Position numbers and translations under genes: made by a program. Below are positions 26,096 to 40,950 of a stretch of 64,000 nucleotides of DNA, one piece after another. How positions within the stretch are numbered: the first letter of the stretch is position 1; each line of letters begins with the position of its first letter. The notes under the pieces were generated by a model, which did not search any database, was not told where the DNA came from, and was given only the letters and a program-made list of their open reading frames with translations. Source of the DNA: Deltaproteobacteria bacterium (GTDB lineage Bacteria; Myxococcota; Kuafuiibacteriia; Kuafuiibacteriales; Kuafuiibacteriaceae); the NCBI GenBank assembly GCA_040218735.1, contig JAVJQW010000018.1, forward strand, positions 96,001 to 160,000. Direction: 5' to 3'.

Positions 26096-26103
26096 GCCCG
26101 TGG

Positions 26104-26127
26104 GCCACGCGGTTCAAGCCGCGTGGC
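26104..26127. terminator. inverted repeat between convergent genes
   Basis: GCCACGCGG-ttcaag-CCGCGTGGC. No U-tract. Confidence 0.35.
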
Positions 26128-26506: not shown

Positions 26507-26711
26507 GTGGGTGAAAGAAGCACGGTGTGGGCCACGCGCCGAACGTTCGAATTTCATTGCGCGTTTCATCCGTGTTCGTCCGAGCGTCCGAAAAGTCCGG
26601 CGCGGGCCGTCATCGACGACGCCGATCGGGCCGAATGACGTCGGCGGAGCGACCGCGGCCGGCTGCGCGACATCCGGAGCGCCTCGTGTGACGATGACCG
26701 CCCTGAGCGCG

Positions 26712-27731
26712 ATGAACGACGATAAGCGCCGCTCGCCCCGCGTGCCGATCGAGCTGTGGGTGATGGTGGAGGGCGTCGACGACTTCATGGTGAAGCGTCG
26801 GGGTGACCTCAGCTCCACCGGCGTGTCGTTCGAGGCGGACCGCAGGCTGGCCGAGGTCGGGTCGCTCGAATACCTCCACCTCGCGCTCGGCGATCGTTCC
26901 GAAGCGGTCACCGTCATGGGGCAGCTTGTTCGGGTCATGAGCATCGAGGACGAGGGCGTCGGTCGCGTCGCGCACGCGTTCGAGCTGTTCCCGCAGAACG
27001 AAGACATCCGCGCGCACCTCGACCGGTTCGTGGAGAGCGCGGGCGGTGTTCCGCTCCTGAAGACGATCGATCTCACCGACGACGTCCGACCCGCCGACGG
27101 TGCGGTCTTCCGCCTGAACATCGACAAGCTCGCGTTCGAGGCGACGTGGCCGGTGGCGGTGGGCACCAAGGTGCAAGTTGCGTTGACATCGCCGGACGGA
27201 CGCACCCGCATCCCGTTCGAGGGTCTCGTCACCGAGGTTCGACCCGACGGTGCGATGCACCACGTCGACGTGGCGGTTTCGGAGCCGGGCGTCCGGTCGG
27301 CGCCGGCGGTGTCGACGTTGACCAAGGCCAAGTCGATCACGGGGTCGATCGACCTGCTGTTCAGCGAGTGGATCGCGAGCCAAGATCTCTCCGCGTCGCC
27401 GCGTCAGCACCTCGTGGGGCAGCTCGACCGCGTGCCACTGAGCGGTTTGCTCACGTTGTTCGACATGGAGCGAATGTCGGGTGAGCTCGCGATCGGCCTC
27501 GATGCGCAGGACTACACGCTGTTCCTCGCGGAGGGGAAGCTGCTCGACATCGAACCCGCGCCGACCGAAGCCGAGATGCGCGAGGCGCTGCATCGGATCT
27601 CCAGCACGGTGTCGGGCACGTTCGAGTTTCGGGCGTGCGCCGTCGAGCGGGACGACCGCATCCAGCAGAGCACCACCGCGCTGCTCCTCGACCTCGCGCG
27701 CGAACGCGACGAGGGCGTCTGGTCAGACTGA
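26712..27731 (+). CDS. PilZ domain + DUF4388/PATAN-like domain protein
   Basis: RRSPR (RxxxR) and DLSSTG (DxSxxG). C-terminal GQL...LSGLL...SGEL...LF...G...GTFEF...LLLD. Confidence 0.8.
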   Translation: MNDDKRRSPRVPIELWVMVEGVDDFMVKRRGDLSSTGVSFEADRRLAEVGSLEYLHLALGDRSEAVTVMGQLVRVMSIEDEGVGRVAHAFELFPQNEDIRAHLDRFVESAGGVPLLKTIDLTDDVRPADGAVFRLNIDKLAFEATWPVAVGTKVQVALTSPDGRTRIPFEGLVTEVRPDGAMHHVDVAVSEPGVRSAPAVSTLTKAKSITGSIDLLFSEWIASQDLSASPRQHLVGQLDRVPLSGLLTLFDMERMSGELAIGLDAQDYTLFLAEGKLLDIEPAPTEAEMREALHRISSTVSGTFEFRACAVERDDRIQQSTTALLLDLARERDEGVWSD

Positions 27732-28016
27732 TCAGACCTTCCAGCGCGGGTCGTTCAAATCCACGAAACCGCCGGACGACTGGCGCTGCTCGAGTGCGCG
27801 CATCGCGGCGTCGGTGGCGTCCGTTCCGCGCACTCGGCCCGTCATGCGCGCGACCTCGCCGCCGTCTTGTCCGGGGAGGATGAGGCCACCGCCGTCCTTG
27901 GGTTGGATGAGTTGGGGTGGCGTGAGTCGTTTGTCCCGCTCCGGGAGCTGCAACCCATCGGGGCGGATGAGTTGGGGGCCCTTCGGGACGATGAGTTTCT
28001 GCGACATTCGACTCAC
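27732..28016 (-). CDS. small disordered protein with five LxxP repeats
   Basis: KLIVP, QLIRP, GLQLP, QLIQP, GLILP. GTGA overlap with the upstream gene. Confidence 0.6.
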   Translation of the reverse strand: MSRMSQKLIVPKGPQLIRPDGLQLPERDKRLTPPQLIQPKDGGGLILPGQDGGEVARMTGRVRGTDATDAAMRALEQRQSSGGFVDLNDPRWKV

Positions 28017-28972
28017 TCCAGCTCGAGGGCCGCCGTCGTCCCTGCGCCGATCGACTCGACGAGCCCGTGGTTCTCGGGGACCTCGACGGTGTTCTTGAAC
28101 ATGTTCCGCTTCACCTGTGCGGCCTCCTGACCCACCGCCAGGCCGGCCGGGGTGATCTGCGCGCGGCGCGCGGCGGACTCGAGCGGACGGAGGCTCGTCT
28201 TGGGTTTCTCCGATTTCGCGAGCATCAACGCCATGGGGCCGGAGCCGACCGACGTCTTCATCATCTTCGTCGCGAGCTCCATCATTCCTGCGTCCGCGGG
28301 TTCACCCGCGACGTTGCGGAACTTGTCCTCGATCGACCACTTGGCGAGCTTCTCGTCGAGCCACGCACGGTCGGTGATGTCGGGGCGCTCCTTGCGATCC
28401 TTGAACTTCCCGAAGGTCTCGATGACCGACGCTCGATCGGCGAGGCCGTCGGGCGGCGTCACCTCGCGGAGAGGGATGAGGTCGTCGTCATACGCGATCA
28501 GGCCGTAGGAGGCGCCGAGCGAAGTTGCGACTTCTTGGGCGACGGTCATCGCGTCCTTGAGGAGATCGATCTCGCGGTTTTCCTTGAGGAAGGCGGTGGG
28601 TTTGTACTGACAGCCCTCGCGCCCGCAGAACGCACACACCTCGCCGGCCTCGCCGCTGATGTCGAACGAGTAGATGATTCTGAAATCCGACGGGTCGAGA
28701 CCTTCGCGCGTTGCGACGCCGCGCACCGCTGACGCTTGTTTGTCGATCAGCGGTTGCAGTCGCGCGACGCGTTCGGGGTAGGTCTCTTTCTTCGCCGCGG
28801 TCGCACCGATCACCTGCGCGATGCGAACTCGATCGGGTCCTTCGCGAACGACGTTGCCTTCGACTTCGCGAACCGGTTCGCGCTCGAGGCTGACCTCGCG
28901 CTGCCGCTCCGCTGCGGGCGCCGCTGCAGGCTGGCTTGCAGAGGGGAAGAAGCCGGTACCACTGCTCTTCAT
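28013..28972 (-). CDS. hypothetical protein with degenerate vWA (CobT/NorD-like) domain and Cys cluster
   Basis: IIYSFDISG strand, helix, YGLIAYDD strand, late D, MALMLA strand, AGLAVG...F. CAFC...C insert. Confidence 0.6.
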   Translation of the reverse strand: MKSSGTGFFPSASQPAAAPAAERQREVSLEREPVREVEGNVVREGPDRVRIAQVIGATAAKKETYPERVARLQPLIDKQASAVRGVATREGLDPSDFRIIYSFDISGEAGEVCAFCGREGCQYKPTAFLKENREIDLLKDAMTVAQEVATSLGASYGLIAYDDDLIPLREVTPPDGLADRASVIETFGKFKDRKERPDITDRAWLDEKLAKWSIEDKFRNVAGEPADAGMMELATKMMKTSVGSGPMALMLAKSEKPKTSLRPLESAARRAQITPAGLAVGQEAAQVKRNMFKNTVEVPENHGLVESIGAGTTAALELE

Positions 28973-29063
28973 GTTCGGCTTATCGGAAGGGCCCTTCGGT
29001 CGGTGTGTAAGTTTTTGGGAGCATATGTCTCAGGAATTGTCATGATTCGGGACAACTTCCCAC

Positions 29064-29090
29064 GAAACACTACAATCGAGACGGCGATAC
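29064..29090 (+). promoter_or_regulatory. weak sigma28-like promoter match
   Basis: GAAA-N15-GGCGATAC versus TAAA-N15-GCCGATAA, 9 nt before ATG 29100. Confidence 0.25.
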
Positions 29091-29099
29091 AGAGGACGT

Positions 29100-31493
29100 A
29101 TGCGGATGTACGCTCCTCGGGTACAGAAGGACCCCACGACTCTCTTCACCGCTCCCGACCAGGCGCGCATTGCAAGCCAGGTTGCAGCGGAGCACGGGAC
29201 GCTCAACGCGGAGACGCTCGCGCAGTGGGCCGCGAACCACCGCGGCGGCGCGGACTCCTCGGTGCTCGAGAACATGTTCTCCGTGCTGCAGACGGGGGCA
29301 GCGCCCGCACCGCAGCGCGGTGAGCTCGGCGCCCGCACGAAGAACTCGCGCCTCGCGGAGAAGACGGAGGCGATCGAGACCGAGTTCAAGTCGGCGTTCG
29401 GTCAGTTCGTCATCGGCCAGAAGCACGCGGTCGGTCGCCTCGCGCAGAAGATGGCGGCGCGTCGGCTGCGCGAATCGGACGACCCCACGCCGATGAACAT
29501 GGCGCTCCCGGGACCTCCCGGCGTCGGCAAGACCGAGTCGATCAAGGCGATGGCGCACGCCATCCACGGCGACGCGAACATGTTCATCGAGATCAACTGC
29601 TCGACGTTCCAGAAGCCGGAGGACCTCGCGAAGCTGATCGGTGCGCCTCCCGGCTACGTCGGCTCGGGTCAGACGGCCGACTCCTCGCCGATGTCGATGA
29701 AGAACATCCAGGCGAAGTTCGGCGACAAGCGGCCCATCCTCATCCTCTGGGACGAGGTCGACAAGATCGGTGGCGGCAACACGAAGGTGCAGGAGGACTT
29801 CTTCAAGATCCTCGGCAACTTCATGCAGTCGGGGAAGTTCCAGTTCAACGACAACTGCCCGAACACCGAGGTCCCGGACGTCATCAACTTCTTCACGTCC
29901 AACTCGGGCATGGAGTCGGCCGCGGGCCTGAAGGGCAAGTCGCTGCGCGAGCACTACATCAAGTCGATGCGCACCGTCCTCCCGCAGCACATCCAGAGCC
30001 GTATCGCGTCGAACTTCATCGGGTTCGATCCGCTCACGACGACGGACCGGATGGACATCGCGCGGCTGAAGATCGGCAAGAAGCTGCGCGCCGCCGAGAA
30101 GCGGACGGCGGACGACCGCGGCTTCAGCATCAACCTCGACGTGAACGACGACGTGCTCCGTCTCTTCGCGGAGATCACGGGCAGCGACCTGTTCGGTGCG
30201 CGTCCGCTCGAAGACCTGATCCGTGACTACGTCGAGCCGCTGATTCCGGACGTCCGTCGTCGCGCCCAGGCCGGCGAGGTCTGGCACCTCGTGATGAAGA
30301 AGACCGACGTCGACAGCGAGGGGAACGAGCGCGAGATCAGCCGCGTCGAGATCAACAAGCTGAAGCGGGCGTTCCTCGACTCGCTCGAGACGGGCAGCGC
30401 GCCGGAGGGCGTCGACTTCTCGACCTTCCCGATCGAGTTCAAGTGCCTGAACCCGAAGCGCCGGCTGTTCCCGTACGACGGCGTCGTGCCGCGGACGCCG
30501 GGCGCGGAGATGTTCCCCCTAGGCGCGGGCGCCATCGGTGGCCAGCGCTTCTTCTTCACGAACCAGGGCGGGATCCACGACGGCAACCAGCTCTACATCA
30601 TGAAGCCGGGGCTCACCGAGATCGAAGACCGCTTCGACGCCGTGAAGATCCCGGACGAGCTCGCCAACGCGAACACCTACGCGCGCGGCGCGCAGATCGA
30701 CGACGACCACGCGATCTTCTACGCGGTCAACGCGCCGGAGAAGGGTGACGAGGCCGAGATCGCCACGTTCCTCGCGACGGCGAAGGGGCGCTCGATCGAC
30801 TTCGAGAAGGTGCCCTCACCGGGGTCCGCGGTGGACTGGCCGGAGCTCGCGCTCGTCGGACCGGCGCTGGTCGGCGCCGAGGGCAAGGCGCTGCTCTGGG
30901 GCGGTCGCCGCATGGAGAAGCTCTCCGACGGCGACTGGAGTGTCTCTCCGGATCCGGCGCGAATGATCGGCGAGCCGATCGAAAACGGCGCCTACCTCTT
31001 CGACGTCAAGGCGAAGACGTGGACGCACATCGAAGACGCGCCGGCCAGCGGGCGCATCGGGGCCGCGGTGACCGTCCACGACGGCAAGGCGTTCCTGATC
31101 GGCGGCGAGGAGATCAAGCGCGACGACCACCAGCGGGTCGACACTTCGCAGTCCTCGACCGCGGTCGACATCTTCGACTTCGACACCCAGACGTTCACGA
31201 AGGGCACGCCGCTGCCCAACGCAGTCCAGTGGGCCTCCGCGTTCGCGGAGCCGAGCGGACAGGTGTCGGTGGTCGGCGGCCTGCAGCTCTCCGAGGGCGG
31301 TCGGGTTCCGAACTTCACGAAGGTGATGCGGATGCTCGGCGCCAACGGCGAGTGGCTCGAGGAGCCGATCGAGAAGCTCGGCGTGAACGTCGCGATCATC
31401 CCGCACGTGGACGGCGACCAGATCGTCGGCCCGTTCGGCGAAGACGGTGAGTTCCTCATCCGTCGCCCGGCGCGAGAGGACGAGGAGCTGTAA
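29100..31493 (+). CDS. single ClpB/ClpA-NBD2-like AAA+ ATPase fused to Kelch-like repeats
   Basis: VIGQ, GPPGVGKT, KLIGAPPGYVG, LWDEVDK, TSN, Arg finger SRI, FGARPL. LLWGG/FLIGG/VVGG...YLFD..KTWT Kelch pattern. Confidence 0.85.
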   Translation: MRMYAPRVQKDPTTLFTAPDQARIASQVAAEHGTLNAETLAQWAANHRGGADSSVLENMFSVLQTGAAPAPQRGELGARTKNSRLAEKTEAIETEFKSAFGQFVIGQKHAVGRLAQKMAARRLRESDDPTPMNMALPGPPGVGKTESIKAMAHAIHGDANMFIEINCSTFQKPEDLAKLIGAPPGYVGSGQTADSSPMSMKNIQAKFGDKRPILILWDEVDKIGGGNTKVQEDFFKILGNFMQSGKFQFNDNCPNTEVPDVINFFTSNSGMESAAGLKGKSLREHYIKSMRTVLPQHIQSRIASNFIGFDPLTTTDRMDIARLKIGKKLRAAEKRTADDRGFSINLDVNDDVLRLFAEITGSDLFGARPLEDLIRDYVEPLIPDVRRRAQAGEVWHLVMKKTDVDSEGNEREISRVEINKLKRAFLDSLETGSAPEGVDFSTFPIEFKCLNPKRRLFPYDGVVPRTPGAEMFPLGAGAIGGQRFFFTNQGGIHDGNQLYIMKPGLTEIEDRFDAVKIPDELANANTYARGAQIDDDHAIFYAVNAPEKGDEAEIATFLATAKGRSIDFEKVPSPGSAVDWPELALVGPALVGAEGKALLWGGRRMEKLSDGDWSVSPDPARMIGEPIENGAYLFDVKAKTWTHIEDAPASGRIGAAVTVHDGKAFLIGGEEIKRDDHQRVDTSQSSTAVDIFDFDTQTFTKGTPLPNAVQWASAFAEPSGQVSVVGGLQLSEGGRVPNFTKVMRMLGANGEWLEEPIEKLGVNVAIIPHVDGDQIVGPFGEDGEFLIRRPAREDEEL

Positions 31494-31496
31494 GTC

Positions 31497-33644
31497 GTGC
31501 CACTCGCGCTGCCCAAGGTGACGGCCAACCCCGTCATCCCCATCGATGAGTTCCCGCTCGAGCGGCGGGACATCGAGTGGTTGACGAAGGAGCTCGGCGA
31601 GCGCCCGACGCTCGACGACGTCGATCGTTTCGCCAACAAGTTCACGCGCAAGGCGATCGACGACGACGAGCAGCGCCGTCGCCTCTCCGTGCTGACCGGC
31701 TTGCAGGAGTCCGTACGCGGCAACTTCGTCGTGCGCGGCGACAAGTCGATCAGCGCGGCGGGCAAGATGCGTCTGTCGGAGCTCCAGCTCCTGGCGCTGA
31801 CCGGCGCGCGCCCCGTGAACGGCGAGCTCGACAAGGCGGTCGAGGTGAAGGAGGGCATGGAGCCCTTCCTCATCGGGCAGCAGCACCTTCGGCAGAAGTT
31901 CGCCGACTTCTACGCGTCGACGCAGGCGCCCGGTCGGCGCACGGCGCCGGTGATGGTGCTGGCGGGGCCCGACGGGCACGGCAAGGCGCAGGCGATCGAA
32001 GGTTACGCGGCGACGGCGCACAGCGGCTTCGTTCACCGCGTCGACCTGGCCGGGCTCACTGACCGCGACGCGCCGGCGATCCTCGGCGGACCGTTGTCGA
32101 TCGATCAGCTGCGCGACGTCGCGAAGAGCGGTGGCGTGGTCTGGCTCCAGGGGTTGGAGGCGATGAATTCGCCGAAGCTCGCCACTGGAATCGCGGCGCT
32201 CCTCAACATGCCGAAGCTGACCGGGAACACGAAGCTCCCGTTCTTCCTCGACTTCGAAGTGAAGTCCGAGGACCTCGAGGACGACGAGCGCGGCGAGATC
32301 ACGCGGCAGCTCGCGAAGGCGCTCGACGTCGCCGGCCTCCGGACCAAGGCGACGCAGGGAGCGATCAAACCCCTCGGCCCCGACGCGATGCTCGTCTACG
32401 CGGAGTCGGTGCTGAAGGAGCTCATGGCGGCGGAAGGGCTCGAGGACGTGCACATCGCGTTCGACCCGGACGCTCGCGCGTTCCTCGGTGAGCTGCTCGC
32501 CACGCCGCACAAGCCGCTCGTGGAGCTGGAAGCGCGCTTGCGCGAGCTGATCGTTCGGCACCTCGACACGCAGACCTCGGTGTACCGCAAGGGCGGCTTC
32601 ATTCGCATCGCGCTCGGCAAGCCGTTCCAGGACGACCCCGCGCTCCGCGAGCGGCTGATCTCTCGTTTCTCCGAGAAGTACGTCGACCTGTTCGAAGGGC
32701 ACGCGGCGTTCGAGCCGCTGGAGACCGGACGCATCGTCGACCGGAACGACCTCGCCGAGGAGCTCATCGAGACCTCGACGAAGTACGCCCACCTGTTGCG
32801 CTACTTCGGTCAGAGCCTCGAGCTCGGCGAGCCGGTTCAGGTCGTCGACGACGTGGTCGAGGCCTCGCACGGGCTCGCCGAGGTGCTCCAGCGCGTCGAG
32901 GCCGACCTCGAGCGCGGCGCCAAGACCCGCGTGAAGAAGAAGCTGGGCGCGGTGAGCGAGGACCTGTTCCGTGAGCTCGAGAAGGCGGCGCAGACCTACG
33001 CGACCTCGGTCACGCAGGCGTCGGCCGAGCCGATGCTCGTGCTCCCCGAACAGCTGAAGACGAGCGTCGCGCTCCGGCAGCAGCTGTACGAGCTCGTCGA
33101 CATGTACGGGGCGGGTGCGCCGATCAAGCCGCAGCAGGTCCCGGCCGCGGGGCGCCTCGCCGGACAGTTCGCACAGGCGTTCCAGGCGCACGGTGACCAG
33201 GTCGCCCAGTCGGAGCCGGGCCGGCGCTTCACGAACCTACGCGTGGGCGTCGAGGCCCTCGCGGCGGTCGTGGACATGGCGGCGATGGCGGCGAACGCCA
33301 ACATCGAGGAGATGCAGATCGACATCATCCGCCGCGACGACGCGAAGGCGTGTCGCGAGGCGCTCGAGCAGGCGCGCTCCATCCTGGTGCCGTACGCGCT
33401 CGACAACGTGTTGCGCTACGGGCCGCTCGTGGATGCCGTCCACATGGCGGGCTACGACGAGCGCGCGCCGCTGCTGATGAAGATGGTCGACATGGCGAAG
33501 GACCTGCTCGAAGCGATGCAGGGTGAAGAGGAAGAGTCGGCTCGCGAGCGCTCGGCGCTGGCGGTGTCGGTGCTCCGCGACTTCTTGAACGAGACGCTCG
33601 CGCCGCACCTCGAAGAGGACAAGGACAATGACGATCAAGGCTGA
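31497..33644 (+). CDS. degenerate ClpB-NBD2-like AAA+ (pseudo-ATPase) with helical C-terminus
   Basis: LIGQ, GPDGHGKA, VVWLQG at the Walker B position, KPL...IAFDPDARAFL small-domain pattern. Confidence 0.7.
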   Translation: MPLALPKVTANPVIPIDEFPLERRDIEWLTKELGERPTLDDVDRFANKFTRKAIDDDEQRRRLSVLTGLQESVRGNFVVRGDKSISAAGKMRLSELQLLALTGARPVNGELDKAVEVKEGMEPFLIGQQHLRQKFADFYASTQAPGRRTAPVMVLAGPDGHGKAQAIEGYAATAHSGFVHRVDLAGLTDRDAPAILGGPLSIDQLRDVAKSGGVVWLQGLEAMNSPKLATGIAALLNMPKLTGNTKLPFFLDFEVKSEDLEDDERGEITRQLAKALDVAGLRTKATQGAIKPLGPDAMLVYAESVLKELMAAEGLEDVHIAFDPDARAFLGELLATPHKPLVELEARLRELIVRHLDTQTSVYRKGGFIRIALGKPFQDDPALRERLISRFSEKYVDLFEGHAAFEPLETGRIVDRNDLAEELIETSTKYAHLLRYFGQSLELGEPVQVVDDVVEASHGLAEVLQRVEADLERGAKTRVKKKLGAVSEDLFRELEKAAQTYATSVTQASAEPMLVLPEQLKTSVALRQQLYELVDMYGAGAPIKPQQVPAAGRLAGQFAQAFQAHGDQVAQSEPGRRFTNLRVGVEALAAVVDMAAMAANANIEEMQIDIIRRDDAKACREALEQARSILVPYALDNVLRYGPLVDAVHMAGYDERAPLLMKMVDMAKDLLEAMQGEEEESARERSALAVSVLRDFLNETLAPHLEEDKDNDDQG

Positions 33645-34665
33645 CAACGCACCGGATCCGGTTCGCCTCGCGAACGAGATGCTCGCGCAGTTCCAGTCGA
33701 ACGTGGCGCGCGCCGGCGTGAAGGGCAAAGACCCCGACGCGATGACGTTCGACAAGGACGCGTTCGAGATCGTGGCGAGCAGCGTATCGCCGGAGTTCGC
33801 GGAGCTTCGGAGTGTGCTGGGCGCGCGGCTCGACCTGTACGACCTGGAGGCCTCCGCCGTCCCGAACCCACGCGGCGGTGGTTGGTTCCTTCGGCTCGAA
33901 GACGCCAAGGGGCAGCAGGTCGACTTCCGCGTGGACCGCGGAGACCTCTCGGAGATCCGCGGGTTCCTGCACGACCACGCGGGCCTCGGCTACATGAATG
34001 TGGAGCTCGACAACGAAGAGGGCATCCAGCAGCTCGCGCGACTGATCGCGACCGCGACGGTGAGCCCGGACTTCAAGGCCAAGGTGCCCCTCGCGGCGCG
34101 TTACGTCGGTGACGTTCGTCGTGCGCTCGTTCCGTCGGCCAAGAAGCAGACGGCGCGCGCGGTGCTCGCGCTGAACAACGCCCTCCAGGGGGCGGCGCAG
34201 GGCAGTGCGGCGGACATGGAGAAGCTGATTACCGCGTACATCGAGCTCGGGTTCAGCTTCCGCAAGTTCAGCAAGGTGTACGGGGACTCGGACAAGGAGT
34301 CGCTCTCGATCGAGTTCGCCGACAAGAACGGCAACGAGGTTCGCTTCGAGGTCGAGGCGGTCATGGACGACGAGAACGACCGCGTGAAGGGCCACGAGTG
34401 CAAGATGTCCTGGTCGGTGCGTGAGCAGAAGAACAACGCCACGGCGCCGAACAACGCGAACCAGATCAACGAGTGGATCCGCGAGTTCGGCATCAAGGAC
34501 GCCGGCAGCAACAACAACTCCAACGGCACGCGCGAGGGTGAGCGTTCGCTCGACCGCGCCAGCGAGAAGAAGTTCGTCGTCGAGCTGATGCAGTACGCGA
34601 AGAACCGCAAGTGGATCACGATCGACACGTCGAAGGGTAGCCTCGGGAGGCACCTCAAGCTGTGA
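33628..34665 (+). CDS. hypothetical protein, divergent member of the family of the next two genes
   Basis: AVPNPRGGGWFLRLEDAKGQQVD...HDHAGLGY...LARLIATA matches both downstream proteins. Overlaps both neighbours. Confidence 0.75.
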   Translation: MTIKADNAPDPVRLANEMLAQFQSNVARAGVKGKDPDAMTFDKDAFEIVASSVSPEFAELRSVLGARLDLYDLEASAVPNPRGGGWFLRLEDAKGQQVDFRVDRGDLSEIRGFLHDHAGLGYMNVELDNEEGIQQLARLIATATVSPDFKAKVPLAARYVGDVRRALVPSAKKQTARAVLALNNALQGAAQGSAADMEKLITAYIELGFSFRKFSKVYGDSDKESLSIEFADKNGNEVRFEVEAVMDDENDRVKGHECKMSWSVREQKNNATAPNNANQINEWIREFGIKDAGSNNNSNGTREGERSLDRASEKKFVVELMQYAKNRKWITIDTSKGSLGRHLKL

Positions 34666-36197
34666 CCCGCATCGACGACAGAGCCGCGCCGAAGACTCCG
34701 GTCGACGCCCCCGACGAACCCGCGCCGGCGACGCCGAGCGCGGACGTCGTGGACCGCGCGACGCGGATTCAGGATCTGCTCGGCGGCCTGTCGGTCCCCT
34801 TCTCCGCGAGTGACATCCCGGACGGGTTGATTCGTGCGCCGGAGCGTCGGGACATCGAAGTGCGTCGACGCGAGCAACCGCGGTTGCGGTCGGAGGGGCC
34901 CACGCTCGACCCGCGCAGCTTCGACGTCATGAACCGCATGGTGGTCGCGAACACGCACTACCTGAAGCGAGAGCTCGGACGTCGCTTCGAGTTCGTCGGC
35001 GCGGTCGCGGACGCGGTCCGCACGCCGTCCGGACGTTGGTACTTCCAGGTCAAGGACCCGACCGGGCAGAAGATGGACGTGCTCTTCGGCGACGGCGTGA
35101 AGGCCGCCGCGAAGTTCATGATGCACCAGCACGCCGGTCGCCAGGGGTACTCGGACGAGCTGTCGCCCGAGGCGACGTTGGAGCTCGCGAAGCTCGTCAG
35201 CACCGCGCGGCTGCGCCCGGCGCCGAAGAAACAAGTCTCGGAGTTCGTGGTGGACGACGAGGAGGAGCTGCCGGAGGACCGTGAGGAGCTCGCGAAGGAA
35301 GAGTACCGCGCCGAGGACCACGCGGCTGCGAAGCAGTACCTGAAGGAGATGGTGGACCGCACGCCGAAGCGCCTCCCGCCGCTGTTGCGCGAGCTGGCGC
35401 GCAAGGAGGCGGCGGACCTCGCGGAGGCGGATCTCGATCGGCTGATCGGGACGATCGCGGGCAAGCCGATCATGCTCCGTGCGTTCGAGCTCGACACGTA
35501 CGACGGCAACACGTTGCGCCTCGCGCGGACCGACGCCGCCGGCAACGTCTCACTGATCGAGCTGATGATTCAGGAGTTCGAGGACCGCGAGCCGGGCGCC
35601 ATGCTCCGCGTGGCGATCCCGCCGGAGGACCCGCCGGCCCGGGAGTTCGATCCGGACCTCGCGAAGAACCTCCAGATCATGGACGACGTCGACGACGACC
35701 TGCTGACGCCGACGTTCGAGGTCACGTCTTCCTCGCTCGGGCTCGCGCTGTTTCGGTTCGCGACCGACAAACTCGCGTACCCCCCGGTGGAGGTCGACCA
35801 GCACGACGAGCTGCTGAAGTTCGTGGATCCGAAGCGTGAGCACATCGTCGCGGACGAGATCGACCCGGAGGACCTCGACGATGACGAACGCGCGGCGCTC
35901 GAGAAGCCGTTCACCACGGCCGAGACGCGCAAGTTCCGGCAGGCCTTGAAGTGGTTGGACGCGAACTGGGACGGGCTCATCTCGACGGGCCTGTTCAACA
36001 ACAACGGCATCCAGACCGGCTACCTGACGTACTACGGCGACAACGCCAACCAGGAGTTCGCGAAGCTCAAGCAGGTCTGCGGGCTGCTCGCCTCCGACAA
36101 ACGCTTCGTGATGGCGATGTCGCAGCCGTCGTACATCAACCGCGAGGTCATCCAGACGACGCTCGAGAAACTCGAGAACCAGGCGGAGGCCGCCTAA
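34662..36197 (+). CDS. hypothetical acidic protein (paralog A)
   Basis: Long high-GC3 ORF, GTGA-coupled, clearly homologous to 36208..37698. Confidence 0.8.
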   Translation: MTRIDDRAAPKTPVDAPDEPAPATPSADVVDRATRIQDLLGGLSVPFSASDIPDGLIRAPERRDIEVRRREQPRLRSEGPTLDPRSFDVMNRMVVANTHYLKRELGRRFEFVGAVADAVRTPSGRWYFQVKDPTGQKMDVLFGDGVKAAAKFMMHQHAGRQGYSDELSPEATLELAKLVSTARLRPAPKKQVSEFVVDDEEELPEDREELAKEEYRAEDHAAAKQYLKEMVDRTPKRLPPLLRELARKEAADLAEADLDRLIGTIAGKPIMLRAFELDTYDGNTLRLARTDAAGNVSLIELMIQEFEDREPGAMLRVAIPPEDPPAREFDPDLAKNLQIMDDVDDDLLTPTFEVTSSSLGLALFRFATDKLAYPPVEVDQHDELLKFVDPKREHIVADEIDPEDLDDDERAALEKPFTTAETRKFRQALKWLDANWDGLISTGLFNNNGIQTGYLTYYGDNANQEFAKLKQVCGLLASDKRFVMAMSQPSYINREVIQTTLEKLENQAEAA

Positions 36198-36207
36198 GGC
36201 GCACACC

Positions 36208-37698
36208 ATGAGCGTTCGAGCACGGGGTCGAGGTGAGGTCGCGTACACGCCGTCCGCCGACGTCGTGGATCGTGCGACGAAGATCCAGGAGCGGCTCGGC
36301 GCGATGTCCGTTCCGTTCGCGGCGAGCGAGATCCCGGACGGATTGCTCCGCGTGCCGGAGCGTCAGTCGCTGGAGGTCCGGCAGCGTCGCCTCGGCGGAA
36401 CGGAGACAGCGGCGTCGGTGCTCGACGCACGGAGCTTCGACGTCCTCAACCGGATGACGGTGATGAAGACCCAGCACCTCAAACACGAGCTGGGTCGTCA
36501 CTTCGAGTTCGTGGGCGCGAACGCCGACGCGGTGCGCACGCCGTCGGGGCGCTGGTACTTCCGCGTCACGGATCCGCGCGGACAGAAGATGGACGTGATC
36601 TTCGGCGGTGGGCTGTGCAGCGGTGCGCGATTCATGATGCACGCCCACGTGGGACGCCAGGGGTACTCGGACGAGCTGAGCCCGGAGGCGACCCTGGAGC
36701 TCGCGCGGCTGGTGTCGACGGCGCGGCTGCGTCCGGCGCCCAAGAAGCAGGAAGACGAGTTCGAGGTGCAGCTCGACGACGACGAGCAGCTCCCCGAGGA
36801 CGCGGAGGGCCTCGCGAAGGAGGAGTACCGCGCCGAGGATCTGCGCGACGCCAAGGCGTACCTGAAGCACCTGGTGGACCGCGTGCCGGCACGTCTGCCG
36901 TCGTTGCTGCGGGAGGTCGCGCGCAAGGCGCCCGAGGACTACGTCGAAGCGGATCTGGATCGGCTCCTCGGGATGATCGCGGACGAACCGATCATGCTGC
37001 GTGCGTTCGACGTCGACAGCTACGACGGCAACTCACTCCGCCTGTCGCGGACCGACAGCGAGGGCAACGTCGCGCTGATCGAGCTGATGATTCAGGAGTA
37101 CGAAGATCGCGATCCGGGTGCGCTCTTGCGCGTGGCGATGCCGCCCGAGGCGTCCGCGCAGCGGGCGTATCAGCCGGACCTCGAGAACGACCTGAAGATC
37201 ATCGACGACATCGACGACGACCTGCTCACGCCGTACTTCGAGGTCACCAACGCGTCGCTTGGTGTCGCGCTCCTGCAGTTCGCCGCGGACCACGCGGACC
37301 CGCCGATCTCCGTCGAGGACAAGGACACCCTCGTCGGCTACCTCGACTTCTCGAAGCGCCCCGCGCCCGAGCCGGACCCGGAAGAGGTCGACGACGAGGC
37401 CCCGGTCGCCAAACACACCCAGCCGCTGAACAAACAGGAGATCCGCACGCTCCGCCGCGCGCTCGGGTGGCTCGACGCGAACTGGGAGGAGTACCACAAG
37501 GGCAACCTGCGGAACGGCCCGCAGTTCGGGTACCTCGCGTACACCGCGGACAACTGCCGGGTGCCGAAGCTCGCGGAGTGTTATCGCGTGGTGGAGTCGG
37601 ACCAGCGCTTCAAGCAGATGCTGATGGCGCACCACCGCACGTACATGACTCGGGACACGGTGCAGGCCGTGCTCGGGGAGCTGAAGGCGATGCGCTGA
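36208..37698 (+). CDS. hypothetical acidic protein (paralog B)
   Basis: Shares DAVRTPSGRWYF, GRQGYSDELSPEATLELA, LIELMIQE, DDDLLTP, WLDANW with paralog A. Confidence 0.8.
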   Translation: MSVRARGRGEVAYTPSADVVDRATKIQERLGAMSVPFAASEIPDGLLRVPERQSLEVRQRRLGGTETAASVLDARSFDVLNRMTVMKTQHLKHELGRHFEFVGANADAVRTPSGRWYFRVTDPRGQKMDVIFGGGLCSGARFMMHAHVGRQGYSDELSPEATLELARLVSTARLRPAPKKQEDEFEVQLDDDEQLPEDAEGLAKEEYRAEDLRDAKAYLKHLVDRVPARLPSLLREVARKAPEDYVEADLDRLLGMIADEPIMLRAFDVDSYDGNSLRLSRTDSEGNVALIELMIQEYEDRDPGALLRVAMPPEASAQRAYQPDLENDLKIIDDIDDDLLTPYFEVTNASLGVALLQFAADHADPPISVEDKDTLVGYLDFSKRPAPEPDPEEVDDEAPVAKHTQPLNKQEIRTLRRALGWLDANWEEYHKGNLRNGPQFGYLAYTADNCRVPKLAECYRVVESDQRFKQMLMAHHRTYMTRDTVQAVLGELKAMR

Positions 37699-37701
37699 GG
37701 C

Positions 37702-38328
37702 TCACCCGTGGGTGAGGCCCTTCTCCTTCGCGATACCGGCGTTGATCTCGTTCGCCTTGATGAGGCCCGGGCGTGCGTTCAACCGTTCGAGGTACGCCAT
37801 GTACTCGGGGCGCTTCTCCAGCATCCCGAACTGCGTCATGAACCGAACCGTGCCGCCGAACACGACGTCGGCCATCGTGAACTGCTCGCCGCACAGGAAG
37901 GGCCCGTCGCCGATCGCACCGGTGATGGTGTCGAGCATCTCCTCGTAGGTGCCCCAGCCGATGCGGCTCGGTTCGAACGCCCACTCGGAGGAGTGCGCCG
38001 CGCAACCCGGCTCGATCACGGACGGTGCGTAGAAGGACCAACGTAGGTAGGCGGCGCGCTCGGGTGCGTCGTGTGCGGGGGCGAGGCGTCCGAGCGCATA
38101 GCGGTCCGCGAGGTACAACGCGATCGCCGCGGCCTCGGTGACGATCGTGTCGCCGTCGATCAGCGTCGGCAGCTTGCCCATGCGGTTCTTGTTCTTGATG
38201 TCGGGCTGCTTGTGCTCGCCCTTCATGATGTCGACGTAGACGAGCTCGTACGGCTCGCCCACCTCTTCGAGGGCCCAGACGGTCCCGCCGGCGCGCGTGA
38301 ATGGGTGGTGAAGGAGCTTCAGTGTCAC
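37702..38328 (-). CDS. glutathione S-transferase family protein
   Basis: N.MGKLPTL...TEAAAIALYLA, FLCGEQFTMADV. Confidence 0.93.
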   Translation of the reverse strand: MTLKLLHHPFTRAGGTVWALEEVGEPYELVYVDIMKGEHKQPDIKNKNRMGKLPTLIDGDTIVTEAAAIALYLADRYALGRLAPAHDAPERAAYLRWSFYAPSVIEPGCAAHSSEWAFEPSRIGWGTYEEMLDTITGAIGDGPFLCGEQFTMADVVFGGTVRFMTQFGMLEKRPEYMAYLERLNARPGLIKANEINAGIAKEKGLTHG

Positions 38329-38352
38329 GCGCCGGACGATAGCGCCGCGGTG

Positions 38353-40950
38353 TCAGCGGGCGCCATGGCACTTCTTGAATTTCTTGCCGCTCCCGCAGGG
38401 GCACGGATCGTTGCGCCCGACCCCGCGGAAGTCGGGCGCGGCGCCCTCGGGGGCCGCCGGCGCGTCGTTGGCCGGGCGCTGCTGCTGTTGCCGCGCGGCC
38501 ATCTGCGCTTCGTACATCGCCTTCATCTCCGACAGCTTCTCGTCGCGACGGCGACGCGCCGCGGTGAGGTCGACGGTGAAGTCCTCGGGGAGCTTCGCGC
38601 CGAAGGTCTCGAGCTCGACGACGTAGTCCTCGAGGTGCTGGACCATCGCAGCGCGATCGTCGGTGTCGTACAGGCGCACGTCCTCACCGGCGGCGTCGAG
38701 GTGCGCGAGCGCCTGGGTCGCCCACTTCGCGGCTTCGTCGTGCTCGCCGGAGCGGAAGCGGAGCGTCGCGCGCATCGCCATCGCTTCGACCGACGTCGCG
38801 TCCGTCGCGAGGACCGCGTCGAGGTCTTCGTCGACGTTCGGGCGCTCCAGCAGCAGGAGCAGCCGCGCGCGATGCAGGCGCGGTCGAATGCCGTCGGGCG
38901 ACGCTGCGATGTCCCCCTCCAACGTTCGGAGCGCCTCCGACAGGCCCATCTTCTTGGCGCCGACGCTCGTCTGCGCCGGCGTCACGAGCGGATCGAAGTC
39001 CACGTTCCCGCGCTGCGCCGCCTGGAGGAACTGCATCATGTGCTGCGTGAGGATTTGACCGCCCTCGGGGGTGGGCTTGAGTTTGTCCGCCGCGCCGCAC
39101 GCCTTGCAGCGCGGGTCACCGACGAACGCCGGATCGCCGAGGTCGTCCTTCGCGTCCACGTCGAGGTAGACGCGCTTGTACGTGTACCAGAGCGTCTCCT
39201 TGCAGCGCTCACACTCCAGCGGCAAGCGTACTTGCGGTGCCTCGCGCTCCTCCGGCTCGCGCGCGGCCATCGTGCGATCGATCGCGGCCTTCAGCTTGTC
39301 GTCCATCTCGGCGCCCGTCGCGAGCGCGAGCACCGCCCACGCGACCTCTTCCGGCTCATCCGCGAACGCGCGGCTCGCGAGCACCGGGAGGAGGCGCGGA
39401 TCACCGACGCGCAGGAGCGTCCGCGACAAAGCGCTGCGCCCGTGCGGCCGCAGGTCGAGGAAGCGGCGCCCACACACCAGACCGATGCGCTCGGTGCGGA
39501 GCTCCTCGGCGCAGGCGAGGGCGAGCGTGGTGGCGCGTTCGTCGAGGGGGATGCGCCCGAGCACCTCGAGCACCGCGGCCTCGCCCTTGTCGCGCGCCTT
39601 CGATACGGCGCGCACGACGGCGGCGTGCACGGAGGGTTCGTCGACCTCGGCTGCCGCGTCGACGAGCGCCTCGCCGTGACCGCCGTGCAGGACGGCGGCG
39701 AGGAGGCGCTCGATCGTGCGACCGCGCAGGAAGGTCTCGCGGACGATCACCGACAACACCCGACGCATGTCGCGCGGCGCGGTCTGTTCGAAGAGCTTCG
39801 TCAGCGCGGCCTCGTCCATCGCGGCGAGGGCCGCGGCGTCGTGTTCACCGCCGAGGGTCTTCGCGAGCGCGATCATGCCGGCGCTCTTGGATTCGTCGCC
39901 GCCGCCCGCGATGACGATGGACGCCGCCTTGGTGGCGGCCGCGACGAAGAGGCCCGCGGCGTCGAGCTCGAGACCACCGATCAGATCGGCGCGCTCCACG
40001 AGCGCCGCGACGAGGCCGCGACGACGGCGCGGCATCGAGCCCAGCTCGTGCGCTTCGTCCGAGGTGTCCTCCACCGGCGGGTCGACCTCGAGGATCGGCG
40101 CGAGCGCGTGCAGGATGGCGCCCGCGTTCTTCACCTTCATCGCTTCGGTCAGCGCGGTCGCCTGCTCGCCTTCGAGGAGCGGGACGACGTCGGCTTCGAG
40201 CGTCTCGCGCGCCATGTCGAGCAGCTCGAGCCCGGCCTCCTTGCGCGAGTAGGGGATCGGGACGCCCGTCACGACACACAGCGCGGCGCGCGTCGGGAAC
40301 GACGCGTTCTCCGGCTCGTCCTCCTTGGAGTCACCGATCGCGTTGCCGATGACCCGCCCCGCGAGGCCCTGGTTGCCGGAGAGGAGCGCTGCCCCGTAGA
40401 GCGCGCCGCGGCGATCGGGCGACAGCGCGCCGGCGCGGTTGAGCGCCTTGTCGAGGAACGCGACGACCTCGTCCGAGCCGATGATCGCGAGCGCGGTCGC
40501 GGTGGCCGCGTACGCTTCGCCGTCGAGGCGGCCGCGTGCGCGCACCGCTTCGAGGAGTGTGTCTGGGGCGAGGTGCCCGAGCGCGCTCGCGAGCTGCGCG
40601 GCGAGGTCGCCGGTGGCTTCCTCGAAGCGCTTCTTCATCGCATCGACGGCGCCCTTGGCGTTCTTGCGTTCGAGGAGCCCGATCGCTTCCATCGCGACGA
40701 GCGGATCCTCGTCGGCGACCTTGGCGATCGCCGCTTCGACGAGGTCGTCGTCGCCGCGCACGCCGATCTGCTCGATCGCAAACGTGCGCACGATCGGGTT
40801 GTCGTGATCGAGGAGCTCGCGGATGCGGTCGGCTTCGAGGACGAAGCGGTTCTCGGGGGCCCCGTTGGGGTGCGGGAGGTCGGCGTCGGGCTCGGGCAGC
40901 ACGTTCGCCGCGGCTTCGTCGTTGTTCGCTCCGATGATGTGGATCGCCAC
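38353..40950 (-). CDS. HEAT/TPR-like helical protein with CxxC pairs and C-terminal SEC-C motif
   Basis: GRNDPCPCGSGKKFKKCH at the C-terminus, CERC...CKAC, HEAT-like N-terminal repeats. Confidence 0.85.
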   Translation of the reverse strand: MAIHIIGANNDEAAANVLPEPDADLPHPNGAPENRFVLEADRIRELLDHDNPIVRTFAIEQIGVRGDDDLVEAAIAKVADEDPLVAMEAIGLLERKNAKGAVDAMKKRFEEATGDLAAQLASALGHLAPDTLLEAVRARGRLDGEAYAATATALAIIGSDEVVAFLDKALNRAGALSPDRRGALYGAALLSGNQGLAGRVIGNAIGDSKEDEPENASFPTRAALCVVTGVPIPYSRKEAGLELLDMARETLEADVVPLLEGEQATALTEAMKVKNAGAILHALAPILEVDPPVEDTSDEAHELGSMPRRRRGLVAALVERADLIGGLELDAAGLFVAAATKAASIVIAGGGDESKSAGMIALAKTLGGEHDAAALAAMDEAALTKLFEQTAPRDMRRVLSVIVRETFLRGRTIERLLAAVLHGGHGEALVDAAAEVDEPSVHAAVVRAVSKARDKGEAAVLEVLGRIPLDERATTLALACAEELRTERIGLVCGRRFLDLRPHGRSALSRTLLRVGDPRLLPVLASRAFADEPEEVAWAVLALATGAEMDDKLKAAIDRTMAAREPEEREAPQVRLPLECERCKETLWYTYKRVYLDVDAKDDLGDPAFVGDPRCKACGAADKLKPTPEGGQILTQHMMQFLQAAQRGNVDFDPLVTPAQTSVGAKKMGLSEALRTLEGDIAASPDGIRPRLHRARLLLLLERPNVDEDLDAVLATDATSVEAMAMRATLRFRSGEHDEAAKWATQALAHLDAAGEDVRLYDTDDRAAMVQHLEDYVVELETFGAKLPEDFTVDLTAARRRRDEKLSEMKAMYEAQMAARQQQQRPANDAPAAPEGAAPDFRGVGRNDPCPCGSGKKFKKCHGAR

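Follow-up and report, generated by a model that had tools for sequence, protein, structure and literature searches.

In the pairs CbbQ/CbbO, NorQ/NorD and RavA/ViaA, MoxR AAA+ motors act with vWA adaptors, and the classic role of AAA+/vWA pairs is the maturation or remodelling of specific client proteins. A second arrangement, found in Torsin-LAP1/LULL1 and in the Mg-chelatase BchI-BchD, pairs an active AAA+ protein with a paralogous module unable to hydrolyse ATP; BchD ends in a vWA/integrin-I domain. In the single-ring protein Skd3 (human CLPB), the repeat domain is of the ankyrin type.

In the MoxR-vWA ternary conflict systems, as described in the parts of the article drawn on here, an AAA+ chaperone is combined with a vWA co-chaperone and with a further component bearing a variable region or effector; the systems show enrichment in multicellular bacteria, beta-propellers occur in some subtypes, and some of the vWA domains lack the MIDAS aspartates (Kaur, Burroughs, Iyer, Aravind, eLife 2020, PMC7159879). 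The locus analyzed in this study, which lies within a 64,000-nucleotide stretch of DNA (hereafter the window), resembles these systems: it encodes an AAA+ protein and a propeller, together with a vWA-like protein whose MIDAS is incomplete and a third protein that carries a hypervariable tail. It differs from them in that (i) the ATPase is of the ClpB-NBD2 type with a threading pore loop, and not a MoxR protein, (ii) the propeller forms part of the ATPase instead of the vWA protein, and (iii) a pseudo-ATPase paralogous to the motor takes the third position, in place of VMAP, iSTAND or FtsH. In the text of the article the word "Kelch" does not occur, and "ClpB" occurs once, within a reference.

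Organization and genomic site of the locus

The ORF listing and translations confirmed the coordinates and the two divergent arms of the seven ORFs given in the original prediction:

27732..28016, minus strand: P0001 (94 aa), soluble peptide with LIxP repeats (ORF and translation)
28013..28972, minus strand: P0002 (319 aa), core component with a vWA-like predicted fold (ORF and translation)
28973..29099, no strand: divergent intergenic spacer of 127 bp, GC 0.504
29100..31493, plus strand: P0003 (797 aa), core component, predicted ClpB-NBD2-type AAA+ protein with a Kelch-like propeller
31497..33644, plus strand: P0004 (715 aa), core component, predicted Clp-D2-derived pseudo-ATPase
33628..34665, plus strand: P0005 (345 aa), accessory, distant paralog of P0006/P0007
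34662..36197, plus strand: P0006 (511 aa), accessory, acidic, of no known family
36208..37698, plus strand: P0007 (496 aa), tandem paralog of P0006

The spacer is lower in GC than the whole window (0.688), and both arms are tightly packed, with overlaps of 4, 17 and 4 nt and gaps of 3 and 10 nt; the start of P0001 overlaps the stop of P0002 by 4 nt. On the plus strand of the spacer (29049-29076) we found a sigma-70-like site, GGGACA-16-TACAAT (9/12 matches), which is a consensus match only (one site found, 0.2 expected). The hydropathy scan classed all of the locus proteins as soluble and cytoplasmic: no 19-residue Kyte-Doolittle window scored 1.6 or more (maximum 1.52) and no N-terminus was hydrophobic, in agreement with the predicted lack of signal peptides and TM segments.

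The locus genes have intact frames in the window and a high GC3 (0.80-0.93 in their stated frames, 0.80 for P0001), similar to that of the flanking genes. This fits the native codon usage originally proposed; however, the label "native" has to be qualified, since the seven genes constitute an indel of approx. 10 kb relative to G001, a genome of the same genus. In G001, the PilZ gene directly meets the GST gene in a tail-to-tail overlap; in the window this site is filled by the seven genes, which leave 0 and 3 nt unoccupied. The island boundaries lack an integrase, a tRNA and flanking repeats, and loss in G001, instead of gain here, may therefore apply.

The conserved trio: motor, pseudo-ATPase and vWA-like protein

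Genes for the AAA-Kelch protein, the pseudo-ATPase and the vWA-like protein are adjacent in five other genomes of the phylum (G011, G148, G348, G046 and G434), and the homologs are therefore not scattered. The trio occurs in four different gene orders, one of which is a single operon of all three genes. Of the seven-gene machine originally envisaged, this part recurs as a set, whereas the other four genes were not found at the other triad loci; the conserved unit is thus three genes, not seven.

P0003 consists of an AAA+ unfoldase module (approx. residues 95-400) and a C-terminal Kelch-like beta-propeller (approx. residues 440-797). Judged by its motifs, it is a complete single-ring motor of the ClpB-NBD2 type, in agreement with the Clp-NBD2 type originally proposed. 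The module matched Pfam AAA_2 (45.1 bits, cut-off 27) and ClpB_D2-small (23.5 bits, cut-off 21.9), and Pfam Kelch models matched residues 626-710 slightly below their cut-offs. Alignment revealed that P0003 has the same pore loop, LIGAPPGYVG, as ClpB NBD2, and that Walker A, Walker B, sensor-1, the Arg finger and sensor-2 are in register with it. Walker A (GPxGVGK), Walker B (D218/E219), sensor-1 (N268), the Arg finger (R301) and sensor-2 (GxR368) are invariant in all six family members, five of the six retain the pore-loop aromatic, and the GG doublets and Trp of the propeller are conserved in the same alignment. An assignment of P0003 to the MoxR type was rejected on the AAA_2 score, the ClpB-identical pore loop and the finding that no MoxR-type Pfam model exceeded its cut-off (AAA_5 reached E 0.0058 at best).

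P0003 therefore shares with the Hsp100/Clp unfoldases (ClpB NBD2, ClpV/TssH, ClpC/ClpA D2) the AAA_2 and D2-small regions, the pore loop and all catalytic motifs, and like Skd3 (PDB 7ttr, 8zr0, 7us2) it joins a single NBD2-type ring module to a repeat domain. Unlike these unfoldases, it has one NBD, no Clp_N in the Pfam search, no detected M-domain and a C-terminal Kelch region, and it is obligately linked to pseudo-ATPase and vWA-like genes.

P0004 is best described, from its motif states, as a pseudo-ATPase, as originally suggested, and is derived from Clp D2. The Clp-D2-derived part (approx. residues 117-400) has GPDGHGKA at the Walker A position and is followed by a variable helical C-terminal region. 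Profile comparison (hhalign) related it to P0003 with 90% probability (E 1.5e-6), and a profile of eight family sequences matched the D2 of ClpC1/ClpC (E 1.4e-6). The family has kept the P-loop (GxxGHG invariant, Lys in 7/8) and lost sensor-1 and sensor-2; it lacks the Walker B acid, which is replaced by an invariant Gly, and the pore loop, and it has ATPHxPL in place of GARPL. An Arg is found at the position equivalent to the Arg finger in five of the eight members. The C-termini cannot be aligned between loci. The tail of the G011 homolog contains HECLH and resembles Pro-Pro endopeptidase and ATLF zincins (PDB, E 0.0012); in Pfam it scored 24.3 bits, below the 27.4 cut-off, and such a peptidase-like tail was seen in that genome only. 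G046 encodes five tandem pseudo-ATPase paralogs (44-62% identity).

The combination of AAA+, dead AAA+ and vWA-like protein resembles, in architecture, that of BchI-BchD, although the vWA-like protein of the locus is encoded by a separate gene, unlike the domain of BchD. In contrast to Torsin, P0003 retains its own Arg finger.

For P0002, the predicted vWA identity held only at the level of predicted structure; the sequence tests were negative or marginal. No Pfam vWA match was obtained, one of five family members gave a VWA match (E 0.14), a PF00092 search of its own genome yielded 27 vWA domains that did not include P0002, and comparison with the own-genome vWA profile (hhalign) gave probabilities of 0.15% and 0.9%. 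By contrast, all 10 of the listed structural neighbours of its ESM Atlas model (pTM 0.68) are vWA clusters (TM 0.49-0.56), among them DUF58 and NorD (TM 0.54); the AF2 model, with a pLDDT of 40, could not be used. The predicted structure thus supports a vWA-like protein. Homologs were identified in three metagenome proteins (62-69% identity) and in four genomes of the phylum (28-34%). V112, C113, C116, G117, D162 and D227 are invariant in the family, position 121 is C or H, and H302, near the C-terminus, is present in all seven full-length rows. The CxxCG...(C/H) insertion carried by the family may, together with this His, form a putative zinc site (CxxC...(C/H)...H). The MIDAS is incomplete: DxS/T is present in 7/8 members and the fifth-position Ser is absent from 8/8.

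As in CbbQ/CbbO, NorQ/NorD and RavA/ViaA, an AAA+ motor and a vWA-like gene share one neighbourhood. Nevertheless, P0003 comes from a different AAA+ clade, P0002 is distinguished from adaptors of the CbbO/NorD/ViaA type by its short length (319 aa), Cys/His insertion and incomplete MIDAS, and no conserved metabolic client gene lies near the triad loci.

Distribution and accessory genes

Triad loci were confirmed in five of the 401 sampled genomes of the phylum, own genome included, and matches were found in 2/208 genomes of another family. PADLOC recognized no known defence family in the locus, only generic AAA matches, and a search of Pfam/NCBIfam and the literature returned no described system with this layout, in line with the original prediction; the trio is rare and apparently undescribed. 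The loci are surrounded by ordinary signalling genes and do not lie in defence islands. Accessory genes of the triad loci differ even inside one genus: G348 has two downstream paralog pairs not found in the congeneric G434. In G348 the AAA-Kelch gene is divided between two reading frames, so that at least one copy may be decaying or mis-assembled.

P0005-P0007 and the repeat peptide P0001 are lineage-specific accessories, since neither homologs of the former nor a peptide similar to the latter were found in the five other loci. The proposed homology of the three larger proteins was substantiated: P0006 and P0007 are 59% identical (76-79% nucleotide identity in the duplicated segments), and P0005 is homologous to both over 212 columns (98% probability, E 7e-14). 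P0006 has a net charge of −28 and a poor AF2 model with a pLDDT of 43; it had four matches among 1.84 billion representatives and was carried by none of 60 relatives. A P0005 homolog (P0134, 40% identical) is present in a metagenome and, from equal contig size and source, appears to lie with a 50%-identical P0004 homolog on one 6.8-kb contig. P0001 does contain the predicted repeats (four LIxP, at residues 8, 16, 36 and 45). On one strain contig that is 99% identical, loss of a single nucleotide at 27765 alters the last 11 residues of the peptide, and the same contig has seven substitutions in the 285 nt, which leaves the standing of P0001 as a functional gene moderate.

Possible role of the trio

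The best reading of these data is that the trio represents an Hsp100-based form of the AAA+/vWA chaperone theme, and that it probably has variable client or effector proteins under its control. P0003 would assemble into a hexameric ring by which polypeptide is gripped and threaded, its propeller would provide a platform for docking or recognition, and P0002 may be a co-chaperone or adaptor, like the vWA partners of MoxR-type ATPases. P0004 could be either a regulatory partner docked on or in the motor ring, or a dedicated client. The payload would be its variable tail, and P0003 would switch, assemble or release it. P0005-P0007, three acidic paralogs, and P0001 would most likely be extra clients, adaptors or antidotes.

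With moderate confidence, we favour a self-contained accessory island of approx. 10 kb, built around a three-protein ATP-driven remodelling core and serving biological conflict (defence or antagonism) inside the cell. A conflict role is favoured by the rarity and patchiness of the module taken together with its status as an island, the expansion of paralogs, the variability of the tails and the genus-level turnover of accessory genes. Patchiness and variability would likewise be expected of any dispensable accessory chaperone.

An unlikely alternative is a housekeeping-type assembly or repair chaperone, comparable to CbbQ/CbbO or NorQ/NorD, that matures or reactivates P0005-P0007 and has no part in conflict. 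This is the classic use of an AAA+/vWA pairing, and the NorD clusters among the structural neighbours of P0002, the soluble, cytoplasmic nature of every locus protein, the ordinary neighbour genes, the host-like GC3 and the lack of a PADLOC defence match all agree with it. However, no homologs of the putative clients turned up at the five other loci, accessory genes vary within a genus, 396 of the 401 sampled phylum genomes and the same-genus relative lack the module, and P0003 is built with a threading pore loop instead of a MoxR-type architecture.

We consider it distinctly improbable that P0003 is a ClpV- or EccA-like unfoldase handling effectors for export or prey killing, with the tails and paralogs as toxins that are unfolded or recycled for a secretion apparatus encoded elsewhere. 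The top NCBIfam match of P0003 is indeed the T6SS ATPase TssH/ClpV (2e-24), about equal to ClpB (8e-23), the pseudo-ATPase tails are variable (one being peptidase-like), and the 11.6 Mb host genome and the flanking PilZ/DUF4388 protein would fit a presumed predatory lineage. Nonetheless, the TssH match spans only the NBD2 part of the model and scores 86 bits where the cut-off is 885 (48-86 bits against 885-1900 for the NCBIfam matches), P0003 is without Clp_N, and signal peptides, TM segments and secretion genes are absent from all six loci.

Coupling to ClpP for degradation, with the Kelch and vWA-like parts selecting the substrates, is very improbable: ClpA/ClpC NBD2-type modules dock ClpP, both proteins are among the PDB and NCBIfam matches of P0003, and P0003 and P0009 have a common G-L dipeptide, a putative ClpP-loop motif, in the loop past sensor-1, but this dipeptide is not conserved (2/6 in the family alignment) and, the peptidase-like tail of G011 excepted, no triad locus contains a protease gene.

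Equally little credence is given to a decaying, functionless cassette maintained by drift, as might be suggested by the split G348 gene, the frameshifted end of P0001 in one strain and the extreme rarity of the module, because the catalytic residues of the P0003 family are invariant in copies only 27-33% identical, the frames in the window are intact with high GC3, P0002 is 62-69% identical to its metagenome homologs, and the entire locus is present at ~99% identity, with one indel, on a 24.5-kb contig of another study.

Layout of the locus and its conserved core

All seven ORFs that the original prediction had placed between 27732 and 37698 were present at their coordinates, as judged from ORF calls and translations. 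They form two divergent arms.

Genes of the locus (positions in the window)
27732-28016, minus strand: ORF of P0001, repeat peptide, 94 aa
28013-28972, minus strand: ORF of P0002, probable vWA-like protein, 319 aa; its stop overlaps the P0001 start by 4 nt
Plus-strand arm: genes of 797, 715, 345, 511 and 496 aa (P0003, AAA-Kelch motor; P0004, pseudo-ATPase; P0005 to P0007, accessory paralogs); junctions in order: 3-nt gap, 17-nt overlap, 4-nt overlap, 10-nt gap

The intergenic spacer from which the arms diverge has the lower GC content noted previously (127 bp, GC 0.504 versus 0.688 for the window), and contains one sigma-70-like site, identified by consensus match only, 24 nt upstream of the 797-aa gene. 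Codon usage is indeed native-looking, GC3 in the called frames (0.80-0.93) being like that of the flanking genes. In none of the seven proteins did we find a hydrophobic N-terminus, and the highest 19-residue Kyte-Doolittle value was 1.52; therefore all of them are predicted to be soluble, in agreement with the claimed lack of signal peptides and TM segments.

P0002 is the best-conserved protein of the locus, and so its alignment was used to search 401 genomes sampled across the phylum. Matches were obtained in six of these, including the source genome of the window; one genome (G308), with a weak N-terminal match, was left out of the locus comparison. A tblastn comparison of every window protein with the four strong loci gave the same result each time: an AAA-Kelch homolog (nearly full-length, 27-32% identity), a pseudo-ATPase homolog (26-30% identity over the N-terminal ~360-440 residues) and a P0002 homolog (29-34% identity) lie side by side. 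G434, a congener of G348 that carries the same trio, was added when 208 genomes of another family were searched.

Gene order of the trio (P2, P0002 or its homolog)
G011, G348 and G434: AAA, pseudo-ATPase, P2
G148: AAA, P2, pseudo-ATPase
G046: P2, AAA, five tandem pseudo-ATPase paralogs; P2 is split across two contig ends
Window: P2 diverging from AAA, pseudo-ATPase

A conserved neighbourhood with shuffled gene order is standard evidence for functional coupling. The trio neighbourhood is kept and its order is shuffled, which argues for functional coupling of the three genes and ties together the two divergent arms of the window. It is nearly certain that a three-gene module exists. Of the seven genes originally grouped as one system, the AAA-Kelch, pseudo-ATPase and P0002 genes were thus found to be linked, but P0001 and P0005-P0007 were not detected in the other trio loci.

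Several local features of these loci were recorded. The two halves of the G046 P0002 homolog share 18 identical residues at the contig ends. In G348 (L039, contig C12, 5785-8234) two overlapping frames, 5785-6945 and 6237-8234, together make up the AAA-Kelch homolog; frameshifting, pseudogenization or faulty assembly could explain the split, and the gene is intact in the congener G434. Around the loci lie ordinary genes for signalling, encoding histidine kinases and Ser/Thr kinases, and G148 has Zur and a zinc transporter in addition. In the window, a hybrid histidine kinase (PAS, HisKA, HATPase_c and receiver) is encoded at 16851-19049 (minus strand), and similar kinases occur beside the G046 locus; this probably reflects the abundance of such genes and not linkage.

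Proteins of the core

The ATPase was correctly predicted to be of the Clp-NBD2 and not the MoxR type. The best family of P0003 is AAA_2 (45.1 bits versus a curated Pfam cut-off of 27), and ClpB_D2-small also exceeded its cut-off (23.5 versus 21.9); in the Pfam test for the MoxR clade, AAA_5 remained below threshold (E 0.0058, 17.1 bits versus 22) and AAA_3 gave no match. The solved structures that aligned to P0003 were NBD2 of ClpB, Hsp104 and ClpC as well as human CLPB, a single-ring protein. Walker A (GPPGVGKT), Walker B (LILWDEVDK), sensor-1 (TSN) and sensor-2 (GARP) are in register with ClpB NBD2, the pore loop (LIGAPPGYVG) is that of ClpB letter for letter, and an Arg is matched to the ClpB arginine finger. 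These motifs, including the aromatic pore loop, are hallmarks of Hsp100/Clp NBD2. In all six AAA-Kelch sequences Walker A (GPxGVGK), the D-E of Walker B, the sensor-1 Asn, the finger Arg and GxR of sensor-2 are invariant, and the pore-loop aromatic residue is kept in five of the six.

ClpB, ClpV (TssH), ClpA and ClpC proper have two tandem NBDs and an N-terminal Clp_N domain. P0003 is not one of these proteins, and scored 48-86 bits against NCBIfam cut-offs of 885-1900. The TssH/ClpV, ClpB and ClpA models match it through their NBD2 part only (e.g. positions 558-832 of 852), no Pfam Clp_N domain was found in it, and PHROGs yielded only a generic Clp-like match. Unfoldases that partner ClpP (ClpA, ClpC and ClpX) have a conserved hydrophobic-Gly-Phe/Leu docking loop after sensor-1. 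Such a loop was considered for the AAA-Kelch family and dropped, since a G-L dipeptide follows sensor-1 in only two of the six sequences and no tripeptide is conserved.

The C-terminal part of P0003 appears to be Kelch-like. Six Kelch-type Pfam models match residues 626-710 just under their cut-offs (e.g. Kelch_6, 23.9 versus 25.3), the PDB search matched a designed Kelch propeller (E 1.6e-5), and the P0003 homolog P0009 carries precomputed Kelch_1 and NANM annotations. Each blade of a Kelch propeller typically has a GG doublet together with Trp or another aromatic residue. Three GG doublets (GGR and GGE among them) and two Trp residues are invariant in the propeller of all six sequences.

P0004 matched no Pfam family. 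Its proposed status as a pseudo-ATPase related to P0003 was borne out by alignment of the P-loop region and by profile-profile comparison (90% probability, E 1.5e-6); the pore loop of P0004 is deleted. A profile of the family matched D2 of ClpC1 and ClpC in the PDB (E 1.4e-6). Motif states were scored on the N-termini of eight sequences. GxxGHG is invariant and is followed by Lys in seven; the next residue is S/T in five of the eight, and nucleotides may therefore still be bound. Where Walker B should have its acid there is an invariant Gly, the pore loop is absent, ATPHxPL stands at the site of the sensor-2 GARPL, and Arg occupies the finger position in 5/8.

The N-terminal half of the pseudo-ATPases is conserved and, beyond approximately residue 400, their C-termini are unalignable between loci. 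The tail of the G011 protein (L036, contig C1, 7281-9989; residues ~700-902) contains HECLH. It weakly matched structures of the Pro-Pro endopeptidase Zmp1/PPEP (E 0.0012), with the active-site motif aligned, and scored 24.3 bits against the Pfam ATLF zincin family, below the cut-off of 27.4. In the case of G046, five tandem paralogs (637-1088 aa, 44-62% identical) lie downstream of the AAA-Kelch gene, and their tails contain repeated helical modules of the "EADTAIAxLA" type.

Pseudo-ATPase paralog array and split P2 of G046
L040 (contig C26), 903-11172
L038 (contig C22), 13862-14647

The description of P0002 as a vWA protein failed at the level of sequence and held only for the neighbours of its predicted structure. 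P0002 matched neither PF00092 nor PF13519 in Pfam, and one of five family members matched VWA (E 0.14). A PF00092 search of the source genome listed 27 vWA domains, the P0002 gene not being among them. Comparison by hhalign with a profile of 11 of the genome's own vWA domains gave 0.15% probability, and a deeper P0002 profile 0.9% (E 0.059, collinear over 114 columns). PDB sequence searches with P0002 and with three alignments used as queries (A7, A1 and A4) returned nothing meaningful. Our own AF2 model (pLDDT 40.4) was too poor for use. However, the ESM Atlas holds a model of the exact protein (pTM 0.68, pLDDT 0.67), and all ten of its listed neighbours are vWA clusters, including NorD and DUF58-type proteins (TM 0.49-0.56 over residues ~60-319, with predicted models on both sides of the comparison). 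All of these structural neighbours are vWA despite the negative sequence tests, and therefore we call P0002 vWA-like, an assignment which, resting on modelled folds, is probably correct.

A complete MIDAS reads DxSxS ... T ... D. It is absent from all eight P0002-type sequences, in which the fifth position is E, R, K, D or V and never S. D-x-S/T is present in seven of the eight and is followed by a CxxCG insertion. V-C-x-x-C-G is invariant; a Cys/His stands five residues further along and a His close to the C-terminus, a pattern which suggests a putative zinc site. In the G148 genome (45% GC, 2.8 Mb) the trio adjoins genes for a Fur/Zur-like regulator (recognized by eye) and an ABC-3 (ZnuB-type) transporter (L037, contig C48, 5732-7350); beside the putative zinc site this is curious, and may be a coincidence. 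A palm-domain polymerase, considered on account of a "YDDD" motif, was dropped, since the structural neighbours are vWA and the motif varies (YDEE, YDEQ, ADDT). A modelled complex of P0003 (95-797) with P0002 (60-319) scored 0.01 against a mark of 0.32, which gives no verdict either way.

Rarity, known systems and a possible mechanism

Relatives of the window proteins were sought by word-indexed searches of 5.8 billion proteins. Beyond near-identical strain copies, one full-length relative of P0003 was found among the matches listed (P0009, 34% identity including the propeller); the others were all Clp proteins with two rings, and they covered 30-46% of the query. P0004 had one relative (P0129, 50% identity) and P0002 three (62-69% identity). 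An exhaustive HMMER search with P0006 of 1.84 billion representatives returned four proteins, and P0006 was found in none of 60 relatives. A 354-aa protein from one of the P0006-match clusters shares 40% identity with P0005; judging from matching source and contig size, and not from DNA, it appears to lie on the same 6.8-kb contig as P0129. Pattern scans of genome contigs (alignments A1 and A3), metagenome contigs (A3 and A4), viral contigs (A5) and plasmids (P0002) gave no match. The AAA-Kelch alignment (A9) hit 17 loci in viral contigs through the AAA part only (residues ~80-385, 24-59% identity), and a propeller was found in none of the 17. Four families with almost no database members (P0002, the pseudo-ATPase, AAA-Kelch and P0005-P0007) are defined by the locus and represent clean structural and genetic targets.

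To our knowledge, partnerships between AAA+ and vWA proteins are almost confined to MoxR-type ATPases, which do not thread substrates. In the module described here, an Hsp100-type threading motor and an inactivated paralog whose tail is swappable are combined with a vWA-like partner and a probable Kelch propeller. A remodelling mechanism is likely. The motor would form a ring and thread or remodel protein, the propeller and the vWA-like protein would supply recognition, and the pseudo-ATPase would either join or cap the ring as a regulator or be a client whose tail is the payload; the acidic paralogs and the repeat peptide of the window may be extra clients, adaptors or antidotes. Torsin-LAP1 and BchI-BchD are pairs of active and dead AAA+ proteins, and if the module works as proposed, it would be a compact bacterial pair on the same theme.

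Searches of PADLOC-DB 2.0 returned no system-specific match: P0003 gave generic AAA-region hits only (PDC-M37B, 7e-12; DolB, 1e-10), and the other six proteins none at E <1e-3. We found no publication joining vWA, Kelch and AAA+ in Myxococc*, and none describing the layout. The original prediction had recognized no described system with this arrangement, and we likewise found none in PADLOC or the literature; the source-data tables of PMC7159879 may list relevant AAA+/vWA variants. In the portion of that paper available to us, the MoxR-vWA ternary conflict systems include subtypes with propellers and subtypes whose vWA domains lack the MIDAS aspartates (PMC7159879). These represent the closest described logic, but our module differs in motor clade, in fusion pattern and in its third component. 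As a third component with a variable region, the pseudo-ATPase appears analogous to, and not homologous with, the VMAP or iSTAND of those systems (PMC7159879).

If the module works as proposed, it would bring a different class of motor into the chaperone/co-chaperone/effector scheme known from prokaryotic conflict systems. A role in conflict is plausible, if somewhat doubtful. The fullest version of this proposal, which we consider unlikely, is a new ATP-dependent class of intracellular conflict (immune or suicide) system, in which a threading unfoldase of the Hsp100 type, equipped with a Kelch sensor platform and assisted by a zinc-binding vWA-like co-factor, would use mechanical force to activate or release the effector tails of pseudo-ATPase copies. 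Were it true, it would amount to a design of "motor plus decoy-subunit payload", undescribed for any defence system.

Accessory genes, island boundaries and strain copies

The three unknown proteins of the plus arm are homologous, as had been claimed: P0006 and P0007 are 59% identical, and P0005 is homologous to the pair across two domains (E 6e-11 by BLASTP; 98% probability over 212 columns by hhalign). The AF2 model of P0006 was too poor (pLDDT 43.0), and a wide VIA-align fold search with it gave generic helical matches only (residues 415-511, Z at most 6.0). P0001 does carry repeats, four of the LIxP type; its interpretation as a RiPP precursor was dropped because no modifying-enzyme family is adjacent and the peptide is not conserved. 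Other trio loci have accessory genes of their own: two paralog pairs (43% and 39% identity) lie downstream in G348 and are absent from the congeneric G434, and G011 has a protein pair sharing an N-terminal segment and an alpha/beta hydrolase. That such genes are distant homologs of P0005-P0007 was rejected, the hhalign probability being at most 1.6% in 16 of 16 comparisons.

The seven genes are tightly bordered. On the left, a PilZ/DUF4388 gene ends at 27731, flush with the P0001 stop; this flank (22400-27731) encodes a 1231-aa CARDB/He_PIG repeat protein and the PilZ-DUF4388 protein. On the right, 3 nt separate the P0007 stop from the end of a GST gene, which lies on the other strand. The only other genome of the genus (G001, 75% complete) carries orthologs of the CARDB (81%), PilZ (71%) and GST (75%) genes on one contig; in it, the 3' ends of the PilZ and GST genes overlap and no sequence separates the two. 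The seven genes thus represent a presence/absence difference of approximately 10 kb. No tRNA was found within the window, no Rfam match in 26000-39000, no integrase at the island boundaries and no boundary-spanning repeat among those listed, so the island may be a gain or a loss. Further right, at 40989-43691 (minus strand), lies a 900-aa ORF with HD and HD_assoc_2 hits and atypical codon-position GC (0.81/0.57/0.70); its called start or part of its frame may be wrong.

Near-identical copies of the locus were found in public runs (nine studies), six of 21 rows containing at least half of the sampled words; none of the runs listed for the locus was of RNA. All joints in the strain contigs had sides of <30 letters and were taken as noise. 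A 24.5-kb contig from another study contains 25000-41000 in one piece, ~99% identical, with 137 substitutions and one 1-nt deletion. The deletion (at 27765) frameshifts the last 11 residues of P0001. Among the differences listed for this contig, P0001 has at least seven substitutions in 285 nt, versus at least four in 960 nt for P0002. In the same contig, changes at 27757 and 27758 would convert Leu87 of P0001 to Pro.
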